Positions 7,727-43,835 are shown, counted from the stretch's first letter. The stretch: DNA of 45,920 nucleotides from an uncultured Gammaproteobacteria bacterium (GCA_964482825.1 CAYZZG010000001.1:63754-109673); one strand, 5' to 3'. Notes: generated by a model not told the origin, from the letters alone. Numbers and translations: made by a program.

Positions 7727-8032
7727 ATGAAAATAAAAAAAGGAGATGAGGTGAAAATAGTTCGGGGGAAAGATAAGGATAAGATGGGGAAGATTGAAAA
7801 AATTTTTCCAGAAAGTCACAGGGTGCTAGTGACAAATATCAATCAATACAAGCGTCATTTGAAAGCAAGATCACAAAATCAACCATCAGAAATAGTAACG
7901 ATTACGAAGCCATTATCTTTGGCTAATGTAGCGCTTGTTTGTCCAAAATGCCATGTGGTTACAAGGGTAGGTTATTCTATGCAAAACAATAAGAAATTAC
8001 GAATGTGTAAGAAATGCAGGCAATTAATATGA
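7727..8032 (+). CDS. rplX: 50S ribosomal protein L24 (C-terminal CxxC...CxxC)
   Basis: KOW-like KKGDEVKIVRGKDKDKMGKI. Four Cys in the C-terminal part. Confidence 0.93.
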   Translation: MKIKKGDEVKIVRGKDKDKMGKIEKIFPESHRVLVTNINQYKRHLKARSQNQPSEIVTITKPLSLANVALVCPKCHVVTRVGYSMQNNKKLRMCKKCRQLI

Positions 8033-8586
8033 TTATTACACAAGATATATACAAAAAAGAGATAGCGCCAAAATTACAGCAAAAGCTTGGTATTAAAAAT
8101 CCATTAGCTGTGCCAAAAATTGAAAAAATTGTTGTAAATATGGGAGTAAAAGATGCACTTTCTGATAAAAAGAATATGGAGAAAGGCCTGCAGATACTTA
8201 CAGAGCTTACAGGACAAAAACCAAAGATAACTCAAGCAAAAAAATCCATTGCGTCGTTTAAGCTCCGAGAAGGAGATCAAATCGGTCTTATGGTAACCCT
8301 AAGAGGTAAAAGAATGTATAATTTTTACTCAAAACTTATCAGCGTTGTGTTTCCTCGTTTTAGGGATTTTCATGGGGTTTCAAGAAATCAGTTTGACTTA
8401 AAAGGTAACTATACATTAGGTATAAATGAATATACTGTTTTTCCCGAGATAGATCCGGGAAATATTGATAGAATACAGGGGCTTGCGGTGACGATTGTTA
8501 CAACCGCAAAGAACAAAGAAGAAGGATTGGCATTGCTTGAGACTATAGGTATGCCATTTCAAAAGTTAATAGTTAACAGAAAATAG
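8029..8586 (+). CDS. rplE: 50S ribosomal protein L5
   Basis: ATGA overlap with the rplX stop. L5-like sequence. ATG 8014 in the ORF track is an alternative. Confidence 0.92.
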
Positions 8587-8591
8587 TTATT

Positions 8592-12929: not shown

Positions 12930-13476
12930 ACTACTTTTAGCAATTGTTGGTATGCCGGGATCTGGTAAAAGTGAAGCAGTAGCCTACTTGCAAAATAAAG
13001 GAATTCCTGCTGTTAGATTTGGTCAACTTACCGACGAAGAACTTAAAAAAGCTGAATTACCGCTAACCGAGGAAAACGAGAAGATAGTGCGCGAAAACTT
13101 ACGAAAAGACTATGGCATGGCAGTATATGCAATCAGAGCAGAACCGAAAATAAAAGAACTTTTAGGAAAAAATAAAACTATTGTAATAGATGGTCTTTAT
13201 TCGTGGGAAGAATATGTTTATTTTAGAGAGAAATTCCCACAGCTTATTGTAATTTACATCTATACACAACCAGAAATTCGATATCAGAGACTTGCTAAAC
13301 GCTTGATTAGGCCGCTGACAGAAGATCAATCTCAACAAAGAGATATTGCCGAGATAGAGCAATTACATAAAGGAGGTCCAATTGCCATTGCGGATCATCT
13401 TATTGTTAACGATGAAGATGTTGAATCATTACATAAGAAAATAGACGCACTTCTTAGTAACCTCAATATTATTTAG
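12916..13476 (+). CDS. second P-loop nucleotide/nucleoside kinase-like protein (UPF0200/CoaE-like)
   Basis: GMPGSGKSE Walker A, 186 aa. Overlaps the adk end by 14 nt. Family assignment is from memory only. Confidence 0.5.
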   Translation: MAKDKLLLAIVGMPGSGKSEAVAYLQNKGIPAVRFGQLTDEELKKAELPLTEENEKIVRENLRKDYGMAVYAIRAEPKIKELLGKNKTIVIDGLYSWEEYVYFREKFPQLIVIYIYTQPEIRYQRLAKRLIRPLTEDQSQQRDIAEIEQLHKGGPIAIADHLIVNDEDVESLHKKIDALLSNLNII

Positions 13477-14258
13477 TGATGATAAATATTAAAACCCCGC
13501 AGGAAATAGTAATAATGGAAAAGGGCGGGAGAATATTGTCACAAGTTCTCCACCAGGTTTTAGATGTGATTAAACCAGGGATTACCGAACTAGAACTTGA
13601 TGCCTTGGCAGAAAAGCTCATTACAGAAAAGGGGGGACAACCAGGGTTTAAGAAAGTAGCAGGGTATAACCATACCATCTGTGTTTCAACCAATGATGTG
13701 GTGGTGCATGGCGTCCCAAGTTCGTATAAGCTCAAAGAAGGTGATGTTATCGGTATTGACTGTGGCGTGTATTACAAAGGGTTTCATACAGATATGTCTG
13801 AGACTCGAAGAGTCTCAACAGTTAACTATCAACAGTTAACAATTAACAATAAAAGTGACGTCGATAAGTTCCTTAAGACTGGAAAAATGGCGCTTGATGA
13901 AGCGATAAAACAGGCTAAAGTTGGTAACAGGGTTGGACATATTTCAAAGACGATTCAGGAGATTGTTGAGGGAAAGGGATATTCGGTTGTTCGAAGTCTC
14001 GTTGGACATGGAGTTGGAAAAAAACTACATGAAGAACCAGAAGTCCCAGGATTTTTGTCGGGACACATTGAACAAACACCGTTACTCAAAGAGGGTATGA
14101 CTATAGCAATAGAGGTTATTTATAATATGGGCAAACATGATGTGGTGTATGCTAATGATGATGGATGGACAATTAAGACAAAAGATGGTAGCCTCTCTGG
14201 AGTTTTTGAGCGAACAGTGGCTATTACAAAAAACGGCCCATTACATTTTACACCTTAA
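13476..14258 (+). CDS. map: type I methionine aminopeptidase
   Basis: 260 aa, VVHGVP...DCGV...GHGVG...IEV metal-ligand pattern. Confidence 0.95.
   Translation: MMINIKTPQEIVIMEKGGRILSQVLHQVLDVIKPGITELELDALAEKLITEKGGQPGFKKVAGYNHTICVSTNDVVVHGVPSSYKLKEGDVIGIDCGVYYKGFHTDMSETRRVSTVNYQQLTINNKSDVDKFLKTGKMALDEAIKQAKVGNRVGHISKTIQEIVEGKGYSVVRSLVGHGVGKKLHEEPEVPGFLSGHIEQTPLLKEGMTIAIEVIYNMGKHDVVYANDDGWTIKTKDGSLSGVFERTVAITKNGPLHFTP
13816..13855 (+). repeat. in-frame CAGTTAAC/CAATTAAC repeat module inside map (encodes STVNYQQLTINNKS)
   Basis: caacagttaactatcaacagttaacaattaacaat. Related copies at 26215-26251 and 37288-37326. Confidence 0.8.
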
Positions 14259-17419: not shown

Positions 17420-17527
17420 AAATTCGAATTTCGAAATCCGAAACAAAGCCAAAATTCGAATGTTCAAATGATGAGAATTTATGTCATTTGAATTTGTTTC
17501 GAGTTTCGTGCTTCGGGTTTCGAATTT
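17420..17527 (+). repeat. ~108-nt hairpin built from ATTCGAA/TTTCGAA repeats (rpoA-rplQ spacer)
   Basis: AAATTCGAA 17420-17428 / TTCGAATTT 17519-17527 (9/9). TTCAAATGA 17463-17471 / TCATTTGAA 17484-17492 (9/9). Intermediate arms pair partly. Confidence 0.75.
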
Positions 17528-17535
17528 TTTGTACT

Positions 17536-18084
17536 ATGAAGAAAAATGTTTTTGGTAGACGATTTAAACGAGACACAAATGAAAGAAAAGCGCTTTTTAA
17601 GGGGCTTATGTCATCATTGGTACTTAAGGAGCGGATTAAGACCACAGAAGAAAAAGCAAAATCTATTAGAGGACAGGTTGAGAAACTTGTTACCAAGGTA
17701 ATGAAAAAAAATAGTGAATCATTAAGTTCTTCTCTGGGAAAATATCTTACTCCCCCTGCCATGCAAAAAATGATTGCCGAGATTGGACCTCGTTTTAAAG
17801 ATCGTAATGGTGGATACACCAGAATTATTCATATGGGTAATCGTTTTTCTGATAATGCTTCTATGGTAATTATGGAATGGGTGGAAGGAGAGGAAATTAA
17901 AAATGAAAAATTAAAAATGAAAAATTTAGAAATACAAGTTGAGAAAAAAAGCGAAGAAGATACAGTAAAAATGCAAAACGTTCAGAAAGCAAGAAAAGGA
18001 GTCAAGATAATCTCAAAAAAATTAACAGAAAAAATAAAAGAAACCGCGTCAAACGCGGCTGAGGCAAAGGAGAAAAAAAAGTAA
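17536..18084 (+). CDS. rplQ: 50S ribosomal protein L17 with Lys/Glu-rich C-terminal extension
   Basis: MKKNVFGRRFKRDTNERKALFKGL from ATG 17536. The track start 17488 lies inside the hairpin. Confidence 0.9.
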   Translation: MKKNVFGRRFKRDTNERKALFKGLMSSLVLKERIKTTEEKAKSIRGQVEKLVTKVMKKNSESLSSSLGKYLTPPAMQKMIAEIGPRFKDRNGGYTRIIHMGNRFSDNASMVIMEWVEGEEIKNEKLKMKNLEIQVEKKSEEDTVKMQNVQKARKGVKIISKKLTEKIKETASNAAEAKEKKK

Positions 18085-24581: not shown

Positions 24582-25931
24582 ATGAATTTTTCTATCATCC
24601 AAAAATCTCAACTTGAAGAAGCCCATCGACTGGACGCTGAATATTATCAGCCAGAATATTTTATAGATTTTTCAAAAGGGAAATGGTTACCCATCGGCGA
24701 AGCTTTGGAAGTTTGCCAATACGGTATCTCCCAAGCAATGAATGAAGATGGTATAGGTTATCCGATTCTCAGAATGGATGATATAAAAGATGCGTATTTA
24801 GTCGATGACGAGATCAAATATGTAGAAATTGCAGATTCTATTTTCAACCAGTATAAATTATTAGTTAATGATGTCTTATTTAATCGTGTAAATTCAGAAG
24901 AATTTGTGGGTAGGACTGGAATATTTAAGATTGGTGTCAATTTTGTTTTTGCGTCATATCTAATCAGACTTAGAATTAGGCAGGACGCCAACATTTTACC
25001 AGACTATCTAAACATTTTTCTTAATTCTTCGTATGGACTTAAACAAATAAGAAAATTTAGAAGACGTGCAGTAAATCAGGCTAATGTAAATGCAGAAGAG
25101 CTAAAACAAATAAAAATTTCTATTTTGCCACCGGAAGTTCAAGAAGAAATTAGTAAATTAGCAAACGAATCATGGGAACAAATAAAACAGTCAAAGTCTT
25201 TTTATCAGCAAGCTGAAGAGTTGCTTTTGCAGGAGTTGGAACTTAAAGATTTTCAAGTTGATGATGACTTGAGTTTTGTAGTTAATCTTTCAGATGTAAA
25301 GTCTGCAAACCGCATCGATGCAGATTATTTCCAGCCGAAATTTGAGAAACTAATATCAGAAATTAAAAAGAAAATTGCAAAACGACTGGAGGAATTTATT
25401 GCAAGTTACTCAACAGGTTTTCCTTTCAAAAGCGATAATTATTTAGAAGAAGGGATACCTTTAATCAGGATAAACAATATTAAAAAGGGATATCTGGATT
25501 TAAATGATACTACTTTTTTAAGTAATCGAGACCACATGCTTTCCCTAAAAGATATAGCAAAAACGGGAGATATCGTTTTATCGATGTCTGGAACAATTGG
25601 TATGTCCGCAGTAATTCCAGTAGATGTACCTAAATGTAGTGTAAATCAGCGAATATTGAGATTTAGTTCTAAAAATATAGATAAAGATTATATAGTCTTG
25701 GTTTTAAATTCGATAGTTGGTTTCTATCAATTAGAAAGAATCGGGACTGGCGGAGTACAAACCAATATTAGTTATAGGGATATACAAAATATTTTAATTC
25801 CAGTTTTGCCAAGGGAAATTCAGGAAAAAATTGGGGAGTTGGTGAGGAAGTCACATGAAGCAAGAAAGAAATCAAAAGAGCTTTTAGAAGAGGCAAAAGG
25901 GAAAGTTGAAGAGATGATTGAGCATGAATGA
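24582..25931 (+). CDS. hsdS: restriction-modification specificity subunit (HsdS-like, two target-recognition domains)
   Basis: Duplicated RLDAEYYQPEY / RIDADYFQPKF half-starts and two coiled-coil conserved regions. GAGGAG precedes ATG 24582. Confidence 0.88.
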   Translation: MNFSIIQKSQLEEAHRLDAEYYQPEYFIDFSKGKWLPIGEALEVCQYGISQAMNEDGIGYPILRMDDIKDAYLVDDEIKYVEIADSIFNQYKLLVNDVLFNRVNSEEFVGRTGIFKIGVNFVFASYLIRLRIRQDANILPDYLNIFLNSSYGLKQIRKFRRRAVNQANVNAEELKQIKISILPPEVQEEISKLANESWEQIKQSKSFYQQAEELLLQELELKDFQVDDDLSFVVNLSDVKSANRIDADYFQPKFEKLISEIKKKIAKRLEEFIASYSTGFPFKSDNYLEEGIPLIRINNIKKGYLDLNDTTFLSNRDHMLSLKDIAKTGDIVLSMSGTIGMSAVIPVDVPKCSVNQRILRFSSKNIDKDYIVLVLNSIVGFYQLERIGTGGVQTNISYRDIQNILIPVLPREIQEKIGELVRKSHEARKKSKELLEEAKGKVEEMIEHE

Positions 25932-26415
25932 GTCTGAAAAATACTACAATAAAGCTCTTCGGTATCTCTCATATCGTCCTCGAAGCGAAAAAGAAATAAG
26001 AGAGAAACTCACAAGAACTAGGAGTAGAGAGAAAGTAGAAAGAGTAGATAAGGTAATTGATCAAATAATCAATAAACTAAAAGAACAAAATCTGATTAAC
26101 GATGAAGAATTTGCCAGGTGGTGGGTTGAACAGCGGACAACATTTCGGCCAAAAGGAATACGGTTAATCAAGCTCGAGTTAAAACAAAAAGGAATCAGCC
26201 CAGATATAATAGAGGTAACAATTAACAGTTCACAATTAACAATTAACAAAGAAACAGAAAGGGCGAAAAAACTGATTCAGAAAAAAATAGAGCGATACAG
26301 AAGCTTGCCAAAAAGGGAACGGAATCAAAAACTAGGATTATTTCTACAGCGAAGAGGATTTGATTTTGAGACTATCAAGAAGAGCATTGACGAACTGTTT
26401 AGAGAAGGAGTATAA
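25924..26415 (+). CDS. recX: recombination regulator RecX
   Basis: YYNKALRYLSYRPRSEKEIREKL RecX-type N-terminus. ATG 25924 overlaps the hsdS stop (ATGAATGA). TTG 25918 is an alternative. Confidence 0.88.
   Translation: MNESEKYYNKALRYLSYRPRSEKEIREKLTRTRSREKVERVDKVIDQIINKLKEQNLINDEEFARWWVEQRTTFRPKGIRLIKLELKQKGISPDIIEVTINSSQLTINKETERAKKLIQKKIERYRSLPKRERNQKLGLFLQRRGFDFETIKKSIDELFREGV
26215..26251 (+). repeat. in-frame CAATTAAC/CAGTT repeat module inside recX (encodes EVTINSSQLTINK)
   Basis: gtaacaattaacagttcacaattaacaattaacaaag. Confidence 0.8.
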
Positions 26416-40239: not shown

Positions 40240-42786
40240 ATGTTGCGACTAAGAAATTATTTTATATTTCTATTCTTAATATCATTCTACTTTTTATTAA
40301 GCGCTGCTTCTGTATCTGCCCAAACCCCCAGACGCTACTATGACTGGAGTTCTACCTTGGATCAAGGGAAACAACAGGTTTTAGGAATACAAGCTTTCGC
40401 TCAGGAAAATGCTGGATCAACTACTACATCAAAAGATTTACAAGAATTTAATAGATATTTTATTGGAGGAAATCTAACCCCCAGCAGCCCCTTTTACTTT
40501 ATTAAACCATTCCAAGAAAACATGCAAATGACCTTTACTTTTGACCCAAAAACAAAAGAAAATATGCGACTTGGTATCACAGGGGAAAGAGTTGCAGAAA
40601 TGCAAGAATTAATAAAGCAAAATCAGATTAATGCGCTTTCCGCAGCAGCTTCAGGCTATGAGCATGCGATGACTGATCTTGCGGGAAATGCAGAAAGCCT
40701 GCAAAAACAAAAGATAAACATAAGCGACATTCTTAAAAAAATAGAAGAAGAAACAGCCAAACATAATGTTGTTCTGGAAGAAGTTGCCGTACAAGTTCCT
40801 GATACCCAGAAGCAGTCAATAGAAAAAGCACTCGAGGCCAACTGGCAAGGAGTTGATACGGTGGCTGATCTTTCTAATCGTCCGGCTGTTCCACCGGACG
40901 TTGTTGACAGAATTCAAGCGCTTAAAGCCCAAGGACTTTTAACAGAAGAGGAATCATCAAAACTAATCAGCGCCAAAAATCGAACAGAAGCCCGTCAAGA
41001 GTTACGCAAATATGTAACAGAAGGTGTTCTTCCCGAAGCAGACTTTATGCGGATGAATGAAAATGTAAAGCAGTTATATCCAGATGATTTTTATAAAATT
41101 CATGAAGTAAAAAGATTTTACGAGATGAAAAGACTGGAAACAGAAAAACCGGATGACGCCACATTAACAAAAGTTCAAGAATTTGCTAAAACCTATAAAC
41201 AAGGGGATATAGTTCCAGCAGATATTAGGCGATACTGGGTACCAGTAGTAAGACTAGAGGAAATTCAAAATACGCTGCGTCCTGATCTGATTGACTCCAA
41301 TATTTTTAAGAATAGACAAGACGACTATAAAAAATTTACCGAGGTGGTGGAGCGGTTCAAACCAAAACCGGAAGACCTAGCGTACATCAATAACTATATA
41401 CAGAATAATAATGCCGATGTTAATAGTCTTCCTCCTGAGTATCAGAGAATGTATAAATTGTCGCAACAGTATGGAGCTGCTTGCGGTGCGGGTCAACGAT
41501 GGATACCTCAGTCTCAATCTGGAGGTTATTGCGCTCCAGAGGGCTCATCTAATCTAGGAGATCTACCAAAAACAGAGGACTTTGCAAAAGGGAAATCATG
41601 TAGCAGAGCAGTAACTGCTGCAAAGGGGCCAGGCGGAGTGTGTTCGGCATATCCTACAGATTGCGTGCCTCCAGGTTGGACTTCTGCTTCTACTTGTGTA
41701 GAAACTCCTCGATCTGAAACTACAGGCGGACAATTTGGTCAAGCAGTGACCAAAGGAGCAACTAGTTGTCCATCCAATGCGCATTTTGTCGCTGTTCCTT
41801 TCGATCCAAATGGCGGCTATTGTATTCCAAATTATACCTCCACACAAACAGCTATCACAGGTAACAATGCAACAGGAGCTACATTTACCGAGTCATCTTG
41901 TTCGTCAGGATATCATCGTAATTACCCAGGTGGTCCGTGTCTGCAAGATTATGGGTCAAACAGAACAGGCATAGCATCCTTGCCTCCCTTAACATCAACA
42001 CCGGGAAACTACCCAAGTCCTACATATCCAACTAGGCAGTGCGGACCGGGATCTCGTTTTGTGTCCGATCCGTTTGGAGGAGGATACTGTGCTCCAGACA
42101 ATTATCCAGGTCCTGGTTCATCAGGCGGAACAGGAGGAACCGCTTCTTGCACACAACCGGCGGGTGGATGTCCAAGCGGCTGGAGCTGGAATCAGAGTGC
42201 TTGTTCATGTTTGTCAACAAGTGGTAAAGCTGCCGATAGCGCAACCTGCAAACCTCCTTCTGGCGGCTGCCCGGGAGGATGGAATTGGAATCAAAATAAT
42301 TGTTCCTGCGTTTCTAATTCATATCAACCATCTTCTTCTGGAACGTCTATTCCTTATTCCGGAAGCACCTCTCCTTCGGGATATGGTAGTTGTCCGTCAG
42401 GTATGTCATGGAATGGCAGTTATTGTACAGGAACATATACTGGTGGTACTAGCGGAGGAAGCAGTGGTGGGACATACACCGGTTCGGGTACTTCAGGAGG
42501 AACATACTCTGGCTCGGGTACCCAAACATCTGGCGGTAATTATCAACCTCCTTCTGGCGGATCATCAGGAACCTACCAAGCACCTCAACCGTACTATTCC
42601 CAACCACCTACTCAGACAACGACCACTACCTCACCACCGCCATCTGAAACATCATCATCAAGTCCTCCACCGTCATCAGAACCTTCATCAAGTTCTCCTC
42701 CTCCAACTGAGTCAACTTCAAGCTCACCACCTCCATCTACAACAACCACCAGTGGTTGCGGGGGCGGTAGCGGAATCCCGTGCTAA
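40240..42786 (+). CDS. large secreted/surface protein: signal peptide, DUF5667-like N-domain, Cys-repeat region, Ser/Thr/Pro tail
   Basis: ATG 40240 gives MLRLRNYFIFLFLISFYFLLSAASVSA-Q. SSPFYFIKPFQENMQMTFTF...RVAEMQEL resembles DUF5667 (from memory). The track start 40216 (TTG) lies in the promoter spacer. Confidence 0.7.
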   Translation: MLRLRNYFIFLFLISFYFLLSAASVSAQTPRRYYDWSSTLDQGKQQVLGIQAFAQENAGSTTTSKDLQEFNRYFIGGNLTPSSPFYFIKPFQENMQMTFTFDPKTKENMRLGITGERVAEMQELIKQNQINALSAAASGYEHAMTDLAGNAESLQKQKINISDILKKIEEETAKHNVVLEEVAVQVPDTQKQSIEKALEANWQGVDTVADLSNRPAVPPDVVDRIQALKAQGLLTEEESSKLISAKNRTEARQELRKYVTEGVLPEADFMRMNENVKQLYPDDFYKIHEVKRFYEMKRLETEKPDDATLTKVQEFAKTYKQGDIVPADIRRYWVPVVRLEEIQNTLRPDLIDSNIFKNRQDDYKKFTEVVERFKPKPEDLAYINNYIQNNNADVNSLPPEYQRMYKLSQQYGAACGAGQRWIPQSQSGGYCAPEGSSNLGDLPKTEDFAKGKSCSRAVTAAKGPGGVCSAYPTDCVPPGWTSASTCVETPRSETTGGQFGQAVTKGATSCPSNAHFVAVPFDPNGGYCIPNYTSTQTAITGNNATGATFTESSCSSGYHRNYPGGPCLQDYGSNRTGIASLPPLTSTPGNYPSPTYPTRQCGPGSRFVSDPFGGGYCAPDNYPGPGSSGGTGGTASCTQPAGGCPSGWSWNQSACSCLSTSGKAADSATCKPPSGGCPGGWNWNQNNCSCVSNSYQPSSSGTSIPYSGSTSPSGYGSCPSGMSWNGSYCTGTYTGGTSGGSSGGTYTGSGTSGGTYSGSGTQTSGGNYQPPSGGSSGTYQAPQPYYSQPPTQTTTTTSPPPSETSSSSPPPSSEPSSSSPPPTESTSSSPPPSTTTTSGCGGGSGIPC

Positions 42787-43835
42787 TTAAAATGGAGTTC
42801 TGGATCTGCGGTAACTTTTTGCCAAGGGACTTCTTTGTAGCTAAAAAAAGCAGCTGCGGCGATCATGGCAGCATTATCGGTACATAAACTTTTTGCAGGA
42901 GCAAAAAGTTTAACTTTGGACTTTGGACTTAGAACTTTGAACTTCAACTGCTCACGCAGTTTTTCATTTGCTGCAACACCGCCACCAAGTAAAATTGATT
43001 TTACTTTAAACTCTTTTGCAGCTTTTAGGGTTTTTGCTACTAAGACGTCTATAATTGCCTGTTGAACAGAGGCGCAGAGGTCATAAATTGCTGTATTGTT
43101 AAATTGTTTTGTTGCTTTAACTTCACGAAGAACAGCAGTTTTTAATCCACTAAAACTAAAGTCGAAATCATCAGAATCAATTATTGGGCGTGGAAATATA
43201 AAACGATTAGGATTTCCTTTTTGAGCAAGTTTTTCAATCATTGGCCCTGCTGGGTAGGTAAGTCCAAGCAGGCGACCTATTTTATCAAATGCTTCTCCAG
43301 CTGCGTCATCACGCGTTCCGCCAAGCCACTCCCAGCTGCCATGTTCTTTAAACACTAATAAGTCAGTATGGCCCCCAGAGACTATTAATGCAACTACAGG
43401 AAAGGTAATATTGGCATCTGAATTTGAAATTTGAAATTTGAAATTTGAAATTTCGCTAATGAAATTAGCGTAGATATGGCCAAGTAGGTGGTTTACTGGA
43501 ATTATGGGCTTATTCCATGTATATGCCAAAGTCTTTGCGGTTTCTACTCCCACCAAAAGAGAACCAATAAGTCCCGGGCCATACGTTACCGCAATTGCGT
43601 CAATATCCAAGGACCTAACGTTTGCTTTACGCAGTGCTTCTTTAATAACAGGTAGAATATATTGTATTTGCTGACGGGCTGCTATTTCGGGAATAATACC
43701 GCCGGTTTTTGCATGTAGTTCCAAAGAGGATGTTACTGTATTGGAAAAAAGAGTAACCAATTGAGAATTCTTTTTTGCTGAAATTAACGCTACCGCTGTT
43801 TCGTCACAGGAGGTTTCGATACCTAAAATTATCAT
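42783..43835 (-). CDS. tsaD: tRNA N6-adenosine threonylcarbamoyltransferase TsaD
   Basis: 350 aa, ILGIETSCDETA, VNHLLGH, SGGHT, GGVAAN motifs. Confidence 0.95.
   Translation of the reverse strand: MIILGIETSCDETAVALISAKKNSQLVTLFSNTVTSSLELHAKTGGIIPEIAARQQIQYILPVIKEALRKANVRSLDIDAIAVTYGPGLIGSLLVGVETAKTLAYTWNKPIIPVNHLLGHIYANFISEISNFKFQISNSDANITFPVVALIVSGGHTDLLVFKEHGSWEWLGGTRDDAAGEAFDKIGRLLGLTYPAGPMIEKLAQKGNPNRFIFPRPIIDSDDFDFSFSGLKTAVLREVKATKQFNNTAIYDLCASVQQAIIDVLVAKTLKAAKEFKVKSILLGGGVAANEKLREQLKFKVLSPKSKVKLFAPAKSLCTDNAAMIAAAAFFSYKEVPWQKVTADPELHFN
43421..43455. repeat. tandem heptamer (AATTTGA) x4 plus one partial copy, inside tsaD
   Basis: aatttgaaatttgaaatttgaaatttgaaatttcg. Encodes EISNFKFQISNS on the minus strand. 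Confidence 0.9.

Follow-up and report, generated by a model that had tools for sequence, protein, structure and literature searches.

Tandem arrays of heptanucleotide units lie in frame within housekeeping genes of a Candidatus Levybacteria bacterium

How can nearly the same short stretch of DNA come to lie, in the same reading phase, within three unrelated genes? The question was raised by a window of 45,920 nucleotides (the whole stretch of DNA analyzed here), in which a sequence-only reading had noticed CAGTTAAC/CAATTAAC stretches in map, in recX, and in a gene for an RnfD-like protein, and had interpreted them as one module inserted into all three genes. The three stretches were found exactly as claimed, and each of them is located in frame within an ORF (Table 1). 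Their translations are STVNYQQLTINNK in map, TINSSQLTINK in recX, and WQQLTVNNLLLTI in the RnfD-like gene. The methionine aminopeptidase (MAP) also matched the PDB structures 1o0x and 3tb5. The genome that contains the window comprises 978 kb in 95 contigs and has a GC content of 39%, and its proteins match Candidatus Levybacteria (Patescibacteria).

Table 1. Heptamer arrays in the window and the genes that contain three of them.
Feature	Position	Strand	Details
Array in map	13815..13850	+	Units ACAGTTA ACTATCA ACAGTTA ACAATTA ACAAT; peptide STVNYQQLTINN
Array in recX	26218..26247	+	Exact 30-mer ACAATTAACAGTTCACAATTAACAATTAAC; peptide TINSSQLTIN; HTH2-HTH3 linker
Array in gene of RnfD/NqrB-family membrane protein	37287..37326	-	Units CAGTTAA CAGTTAA CAATTTA CTATTAA CAATTT; peptide QQLTVNNLLLTI
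Host gene, type I methionine aminopeptidase (map)	13476..14258	+	Pfam PF00557 (Peptidase_M24), E = 4e-40
Host gene, recX	25918..26415	+	Pfam RecX_HTH1, HTH2, HTH3
Host gene, NQR2/RnfD/RnfE-family membrane protein	36853..37722	-	Pfam PF03116 (NQR2_RnfD_RnfE), E = 4e-15
Related array, AGTTAAT/AGTTAAC type	8559..8589	+	3' end of ORF 8014-8586; TRF 8564-8589, period 7
Array of another unit, AATTTGA x4.7, perfect	43421..43453	-	In frame, ORF 42783-43835
Array of another unit, AAATGAA/AAATTAA x4.6	17894..17926	+	In frame, near the 3' end of ORF 17488-18084

The presumed module is a head-to-tail tandem array of a seven nucleotide unit, [A/C]ACA[A/G]TT, and this tandem nature had not been recognized in the earlier description. 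TRF reported a period of seven for positions 13817-13850 in map (4.9 copies; a period of 14 was reported as well), for positions 26216-26249 in recX (4.9 copies), and for positions 37305-37322 in the RnfD-like gene (2.6 perfect copies). Within the window, CARTTAACARTT is present five times, compared with 0.10 expected occurrences, and none of 100 shuffled sequences reached this number. The 14-mer TTAACAATTAACAA was found 12 times when up to two mismatches were allowed (1.7 expected). About 25 further period-7 arrays in the window are built from other units, including AAAAGTT, TAATTTT, GATAGAA, AAAATTC, and AATTTGA. The related array of the AGTTAAT/AGTTAAC type corresponds to positions 72312-72332 of contig C1 of the genome and encodes the peptide FQKLIVN. 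The hairpins that had been proposed to form from repeated GTTAAC palindromes were not borne out: the predicted DNA folds have energies of -0.4 to -3.9 kcal/mol and z-scores of -1.4 to +0.5, and are thus no better than those of shuffled sequences.

A separate observation concerns two spacers of the window, at 29270-29302/29309-29339 and 14303-14344/14366-14416, which contain paired tandem arrays in inverted orientation. Their units are 8-mers (GCAAAGTA / CTTTGTAC) and 7-mers (GATAGAA / TTCTATT). Such inverted intergenic pairs would give long hairpins, and they are possibly terminators made of repeats.

At the level of the whole genome, TRF detected 931 arrays, of which 335 had a period of 7, 70 a period of 14, and 30 a period of 21. 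Period-7 arrays numbered 34 and 39 in two simulations with a fifth-order Markov model, in which periods of 14 or 21 were not in excess either. Period 7 therefore exceeded the Markov control about ninefold, whereas periods of 8-11 exceeded it by factors of just 1-4. The period-7 arrays use 104 canonical units; the most frequent one, AACAATT (a rotation of CAATTAA), accounts for 28 arrays, and 61 arrays of the CARTTAA type were found with a dedicated genome scan. Both the genome-wide number of period-7 arrays, by the Markov control, and the motif counts in the window, by the shuffled sequences, are above the expectation from composition.

After merging, 341 non-redundant arrays remained, which together occupy 11.7 kb or 1.2% of the genome. 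Their density is about fivefold greater outside of ORFs than inside. Nevertheless, 138 arrays are located strictly inside 82 of the 578 ORFs of at least 200 amino acids (14%), and 36 of these ORFs contain two or more; an array was counted when it was at least 20 codons inside the ORF, and as the ORF calls are crude, the coding counts are approximate. None of the 138 arrays contains an in-frame stop codon, and the encoded peptides are rich in N, Q, K, and S. The hosts include MAP and RecX as well as ORFs that read as RadA, RuvC, IleRS, DnaX, and RecJ. Family searches confirmed the assignments of MAP, of RecX, and of the RnfD-like protein only, and the other names were read from the sequence. 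The coding arrays are found at positions where the protein is tolerant, and at no fixed distance from the starts. DNA of the module also occurs in non-coding spacers, and it lies antisense in some ORFs, which then contain VNCQL peptides. Some ORFs have accumulated several copies. The RecJ-like ORF (contig C13, 14690-16432) contains at least four arrays, among them those with the peptides TINSSQLTIN (twice), SNIKSQISNIQ, and EISNFKFQISN and a copy on the antisense strand that reads LIVNCQMLNV; the IleRS-like ORF (contig C39, 1558-4422) contains two arrays.

The common reading phase of the three stretches was confirmed, but it follows from the length and sequence of the unit. Because seven and three are coprime, any frame runs through each of the three unit phases once in 21 nt. 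The unit CA(A/G)TTAA contains a TAA, and therefore a run of three intact units leaves no open frame on that strand, so that in-frame copies need an altered stop (TCA, TTA, or CAA) in one of three units. The three window arrays have each of these solutions once, with CAA in place of TAA in map, TCA in recX, and TTA in the RnfD-like gene. Once the stop is altered, the codons CAR TTA ACA RTT AAC remain, which yield the peptide Q L T I/V N and force the common phase.

The genome-wide distribution of unit variants bears this out. At the variable position of TTNAC, the non-coding arrays have A in 26, G in 23, C in 3, and T in 6 cases, whereas the sense arrays in ORFs have A in 35, C in 14, T in 3, and G in one case. 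All 11 copies of the stop-free form TTCAC in the genome are located in long ORFs, and the two uninterrupted three-unit copies of the TTAAC form are both intergenic. The first base of the unit is C in other genera (CAAAGTT, CAGAATT, CAAGATT); here it is A, but C in the phase in which A would give TAA (TTCAC). These results demonstrate that stop codons force both the shared phase and the QLT[IV]N peptide.

The orthologs from 30 relatives of the same family or order were used for comparison. In map, as the sequence-only reading had suggested, the segment represents 9-10 extra residues relative to the solved MAP structures and to the sister family. The loop is missing in part of the sister family. 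Other genera have arrays of other units in this loop, namely CTCAAAA x4 (in three genera), TTCAGAA x4, CTCAAAT x4, CTCAAAG, AAGGATT/A, and AACAGTT. In 120 MAP homologs from Levybacteria, the loop has a length of 12-37 amino acids between fixed flanks, and its peptide families fit the heptamer arrays of the relatives, the most similar homologs having STINNQQLT.NKK. Identity to the nearest of the MAP homologs is just 77%. An ortholog with 73% identity contains a homologous array at the DNA level, in the same register and with the same CAA; therefore, the map array was inherited. In one further MAP ortholog (genome G012, contig C15, 3854-4699), the identical loop is occupied by a GC-rich, non-periodic insert of 33 amino acids, which indicates that the site accepts other kinds of inserted sequence as well.

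Similar patterns were observed at three further sites. In the HTH2-HTH3 linker of RecX, other genera have arrays of AATTCAG x4, AATTCAG/T, AATTCAT, or AATTTCT in the same register. The linker is as long as in sister genera and is eight residues shorter in the more distant family f2. The closest RecX homolog (74% identity) has retained only a remnant of a different unit, and therefore the AACAATT form in recX is specific to this lineage and has replaced another unit. The RadA linker after the zinc finger shows the same pattern, with heptamer arrays of other units in other genera. The RuvC hairpin, from GWGVI to YGCIET, has one length in nearly all orthologs, irrespective of whether it is periodic, and in at least ten genera its codons consist of heptamer repeats whose unit is specific to the genus. 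The registers are also shared: in RuvC, TCA occupies one column in eight of the ten array-bearing orthologs shown and the xTT and TTx columns are aligned, and the RecX orthologs likewise have a common codon register. As the lengths in RuvC and RecX are unchanged relative to sister genera, the sequence has been overwritten rather than inserted. Empty sites for MAP and RecX were found only in family f2. As judged from these alignments, the array sites are old and common across the order, with MAP, RecX, RadA, and RuvC carrying arrays at the same codons with other units.

The RnfD-like gene differs in this respect. In its close orthologs, a loop about as long (WQQFSPAKGG.., FQQFRVQN..) contains a native caacaattt but not the repeat. 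Here, the array has probably grown in place, as the alignment points to no clear insertion. At this site, the orthologs thus partly provide what the sequence-only reading had named as its refutation, i.e. homologous residues without the nucleotide repeat. The more general proposal, a single module that entered all three genes by insertion, is not supported, as arrays of other units occupy the same codons of MAP and RecX in other genera, the map array was inherited, the length of the recX linker is unchanged, and the RnfD-like case is not clearly an insertion.

The arrays at these sites have a common skeleton, N-A-N-N-R-T-T. The variable positions differ between genomes and are uniform within each array, and this combination demonstrates concerted evolution. 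In the present genome, AACA[AG]TT was found at all four tested sites (MAP, RecX, RadA, RuvC), whereas the units are mixed in other genomes. Units within one mismatch of each other made up 38% of the pairs from the same genome, 22% of the pairs from the same site, and 18% of the background pairs.

Similarity between dispersed copies has to be interpreted with care, as most of their positions are constrained by stop avoidance and by the unit family. At the A/G positions that are otherwise free, the pattern AGAA was found in 8 of 15 modules, compared with 10% expected (binomial p = 4e-5, and 7e-4 after correction for 16 patterns); GAAG and AAAA were each found twice. In addition, the 30-mer of the recX array is present without any mismatch in six ORFs, i.e. 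in recX and in ORFs that, by sequence appearance, are RecJ-, RadA-, S1-, DHH-, and IleRS-like. The borders of these copies are sharp, and their flanks are unrelated. Together, these results establish that the array copies are not independent. The simplest and probable cause is that arrays exchange sequence by ectopic gene conversion or template switching, a mechanism that we infer from the copies themselves.

Some arrays are interrupted by a different sequence. At several loci, on contigs C43 (in an ORF of 485 amino acids), C16, C2, and C75, a GC-rich core, CTTCGACTTCGCTCAG[CT]GCAGGC, is nested between the two halves of an AACAATT array and encodes TSTSLSAG or LRLRSGQ, depending on the frame. 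Similar GC-rich cores (PPAGG, RQAQGK, LRAGS) split arrays in the MAP, RecX, RuvC, and RadA homologs of other Levybacteria. The core has the appearance of a further small element for which arrays are the landing sites.

The abundance of arrays varies strongly between relatives. In 20-kb samples around map, 16 period-7 arrays were present in this genome and 8-12 in six relatives; several other relatives, including most of family f2, had 0-2 per sample. MutS (PF00488) was detected in 7 of the 31 genomes of the order and is missing here and in all array-rich relatives. None of the five sampled MutS-positive genomes was array-rich, versus 7 of the 16 sampled MutS-negative genomes, a difference that is not significant (p ~0.10). 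Loss of MutS was thus rejected as the cause, since many array-poor genomes are also devoid of MutS and the association is suggestive at most. A telomerase-like addition of units templated by a reverse transcriptase was rejected as well, as no RVT_1 match was obtained here or in the heptamer-rich genomes G001, G008, G011, and G019.

Beyond the order, a scan of GTDB species-representative genomes for exact copies of a 23-mer revealed more than 114 loci in many phyla. The hosts include Planctomycetota, Bacteroidota (Prevotellaceae, Flavobacterium), cyanobacteria (Moorena, Microcoleaceae), Candidatus Parabeggiatoa, and Patescibacteria. In Patescibacteria, the copies are located in ORFs of 300-880 amino acids. 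Outside of this group, they are mostly non-coding and in many cases closely followed by an SD-like GGAG. The Planctomycetota JAISJR01 and BNUQ01 each deserve mention, as they carry dozens of identical AACAATT/AATTCAC arrays, mostly in non-coding DNA; the Planctomycetota arrays are directly upstream of an SD-like ..AATTG(A/T)GGAG.. sequence.

We consider it likely that the arrays are heptanucleotide microsatellites at ancient, tolerant sites, that stop avoidance shapes them, and that they undergo concerted evolution with some copying from locus to locus. They would be created, and their units kept uniform, by replication slippage or by local duplication. In genes, arrays would persist only at tolerant places, such as surface loops, domain linkers, beta-hairpins, and termini, and only in those combinations of strand and phase that are open. 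On top of slippage, copies may be transferred between loci by ectopic gene conversion or template switching. Slippage by one unit would shift the reading frame of a gene, and only steps of 21 nt or conversion would preserve it. A genome scan for gene breaks at arrays, which would be the signature of a one-unit slip, yielded 34 matches, all of which turned out to be ordinary gene junctions in operons. The N/Q/K/S-rich peptides encoded by the arrays are most likely neutral passengers.

Several other explanations were weighed against this one. A tiny mobile module (about 30-33 nt), which copies itself in frame into genes and prefers existing heptamer arrays, would leave the trace that the six identical 30-mers with their sharp borders and unrelated flanks represent, and the A/G patterns would then define subfamilies. 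The replacement of another unit in recX since the split from its 74%-identical homolog would also fit, as would the nested GC-rich core, which at several loci indicates that small elements do land in arrays. Nevertheless, we regard such a module as unlikely. Terminal inverted repeats are lacking, no hairpin was obtained in the folds, and the flanks of 11 copies were unrelated and showed no visible target duplication. There is no net change in length at RuvC or RecX relative to sister genera, the orthologous sites contain homologous arrays of other units in the same register, and the map copy has been inherited vertically. Moreover, the arrays form a continuum in the number and the variants of their units, and the search with RVT_1 revealed no reverse transcriptase in the genome. 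Alternatively, the arrays might be putative nucleic-acid elements that are bound by a protein reading heptamers, e.g. of the cold-shock or S1 type, so that the periodicity itself would be selected. The near-perfect periodicity at sites common to genera whose host proteins are only ~60-70% identical would agree with such a role, and so would the recurrence of the unit family across phyla and its position just upstream of SD-like GGAG motifs in Planctomycetota; a role of this kind has been proposed for intergenic TAACTGA repeats (PMC4679880). However, 104 units in one genome and differences in the unit from site to site in most genomes are unlike the target of a single reader protein, the coding arrays follow tolerant positions rather than the distance from starts, and the modules have no predicted structure, which together make selected binding elements rather improbable.

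Selection at the protein level for a QLT[IV]N motif in unrelated proteins might be invoked because similar peptides occur in more than 15 proteins. Yet the copies are identical at the nucleotide level, including every synonymous position, and the DNA is found in spacers and on antisense strands as well. Furthermore, orthologs have unrelated peptides at the same sites, and the peptide is set by the only open phase. We therefore consider a selected peptide motif very improbable, and the view of the sequence-only reading that the similarity exists at the DNA level and is not due to convergence of proteins is upheld. Chance, base composition, or an assembly artefact might at first seem plausible in an AT-rich genome with AT-rich units, but motif counts exceeded those of every shuffle, period 7 is about nine times as frequent as in the fifth-order Markov control, the frames stay open in conserved genes, and the same sites recur in genomes that were assembled independently. 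The probability of such a trivial origin is close to nil.

Microsatellites at tolerant sites thus remain the preferred explanation. In addition, dispersed arrays in Levybacteria and related Patescibacteria might be homogenized by an active, sequence-directed process that operates via conversion or template switching; we put this forward as a tentative proposal that is more doubtful than probable. The loss of MutS possibly enabled such homogenization. If the process were real, segments of essential genes under low constraint would be overwritten repeatedly while frame and length are preserved, and the sets of orthologous sites would switch their unit jointly within a lineage. Concerted evolution in this mode, within the coding sequences of bacteria, would not have been described before.

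Heptamer repeats, a recognized but little understood peculiarity of some bacterial genomes, have so far been described almost only between genes, and here they are present in roughly every seventh long gene of a CPR bacterium with a minimal genome. In the literature covered, which was incomplete, no description was found of in-frame heptamer arrays in many housekeeping genes at sites shared across genera. The hosts include enzymes that read as proteins of DNA repair, translation, and replication, and the positions are common to genera while the unit turns over. The arrays mark, as a natural map, where core enzymes tolerate any sequence. They also explain many hitherto unexplained "insertions" and N/Q/K/S-rich segments of low complexity in CPR proteins, both a source of confusion in annotation and alignment. 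How a repeat whose length is not a multiple of three is kept uniform in frame is a mechanistic puzzle.

The cyanobacteria Calothrix and Nostoc contain intergenic STRR heptamers, and one STRR unit is CAACAGT. The arrays described here resemble heptamer LSSRs and STRRs in that tandem units of seven nucleotides are over-represented, that many units coexist in a genome, that the distribution across lineages is patchy, and that the density is highest between genes. In contrast, the described cases are essentially intergenic, whereas here 138 arrays are in frame, 14% of the long ORFs are affected, and the sites are shared across genera. A second likeness is to Rickettsia palindromic elements and to small dispersed repeats, the latter reported from cyanobacteria by Elhai et al. 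(2008, as cited in PMC3116915). In both cases, short DNA is found in frame at tolerant sites of unrelated housekeeping genes, and just as small elements are nested in heptamer repeats there, a GC-rich core splits arrays here. The module differs from these elements in that it has no palindrome, hairpin, defined termini, or pairs of empty and filled sites. Phase-variable contingency loci, in which changes by one SSR unit turn a gene on or off, are typically surface or virulence genes, whereas the hosts here are essential housekeeping genes, which makes switching unlikely.

According to those passages of PMC4679880 and PMC4692102 that refer to Mrazek 2007, heptamer SSRs are over-represented in prokaryotes and slippage has been proposed as their origin; PMC4679880 attributes to Mrazek et al. 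the observation that the repeats of coding regions have units divisible by three. Intergenic sets of heptamers, namely TAACTGA and GGGAATC, were already known. The TAACTGA unit is one mismatch away from TAACTGT, which, together with TAATTGT, is the unit of the present arrays on the reverse strand, and the same stop codon logic was spelled out for it by MacGregor (2015; PMC4679880). The 23-mer scan recovered the same taxa (Parabeggiatoa, Moorena/Microcoleaceae, Bacteroidota) and, in addition, Planctomycetota. However, TAACTGA sets lie between genes, with a start codon following within a few nucleotides, whereas the three sites in the window are internal to ORFs, and related heptamers are rarely repeated in the TAACTGA genome (PMC4679880), whereas more than 100 units were found here. 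The aaTRs of Borgs (PMC9879509) are similar in another respect, as fast-evolving, lineage-specific DNA repeats add polar protein segments of low complexity and leave the frame intact. In Borgs, all units within ORFs have lengths divisible by three, whereas the units described here have seven nucleotides, their stop is edited in every third unit, the encoded peptides have a period of seven amino acids, and the sites are conserved across genera.
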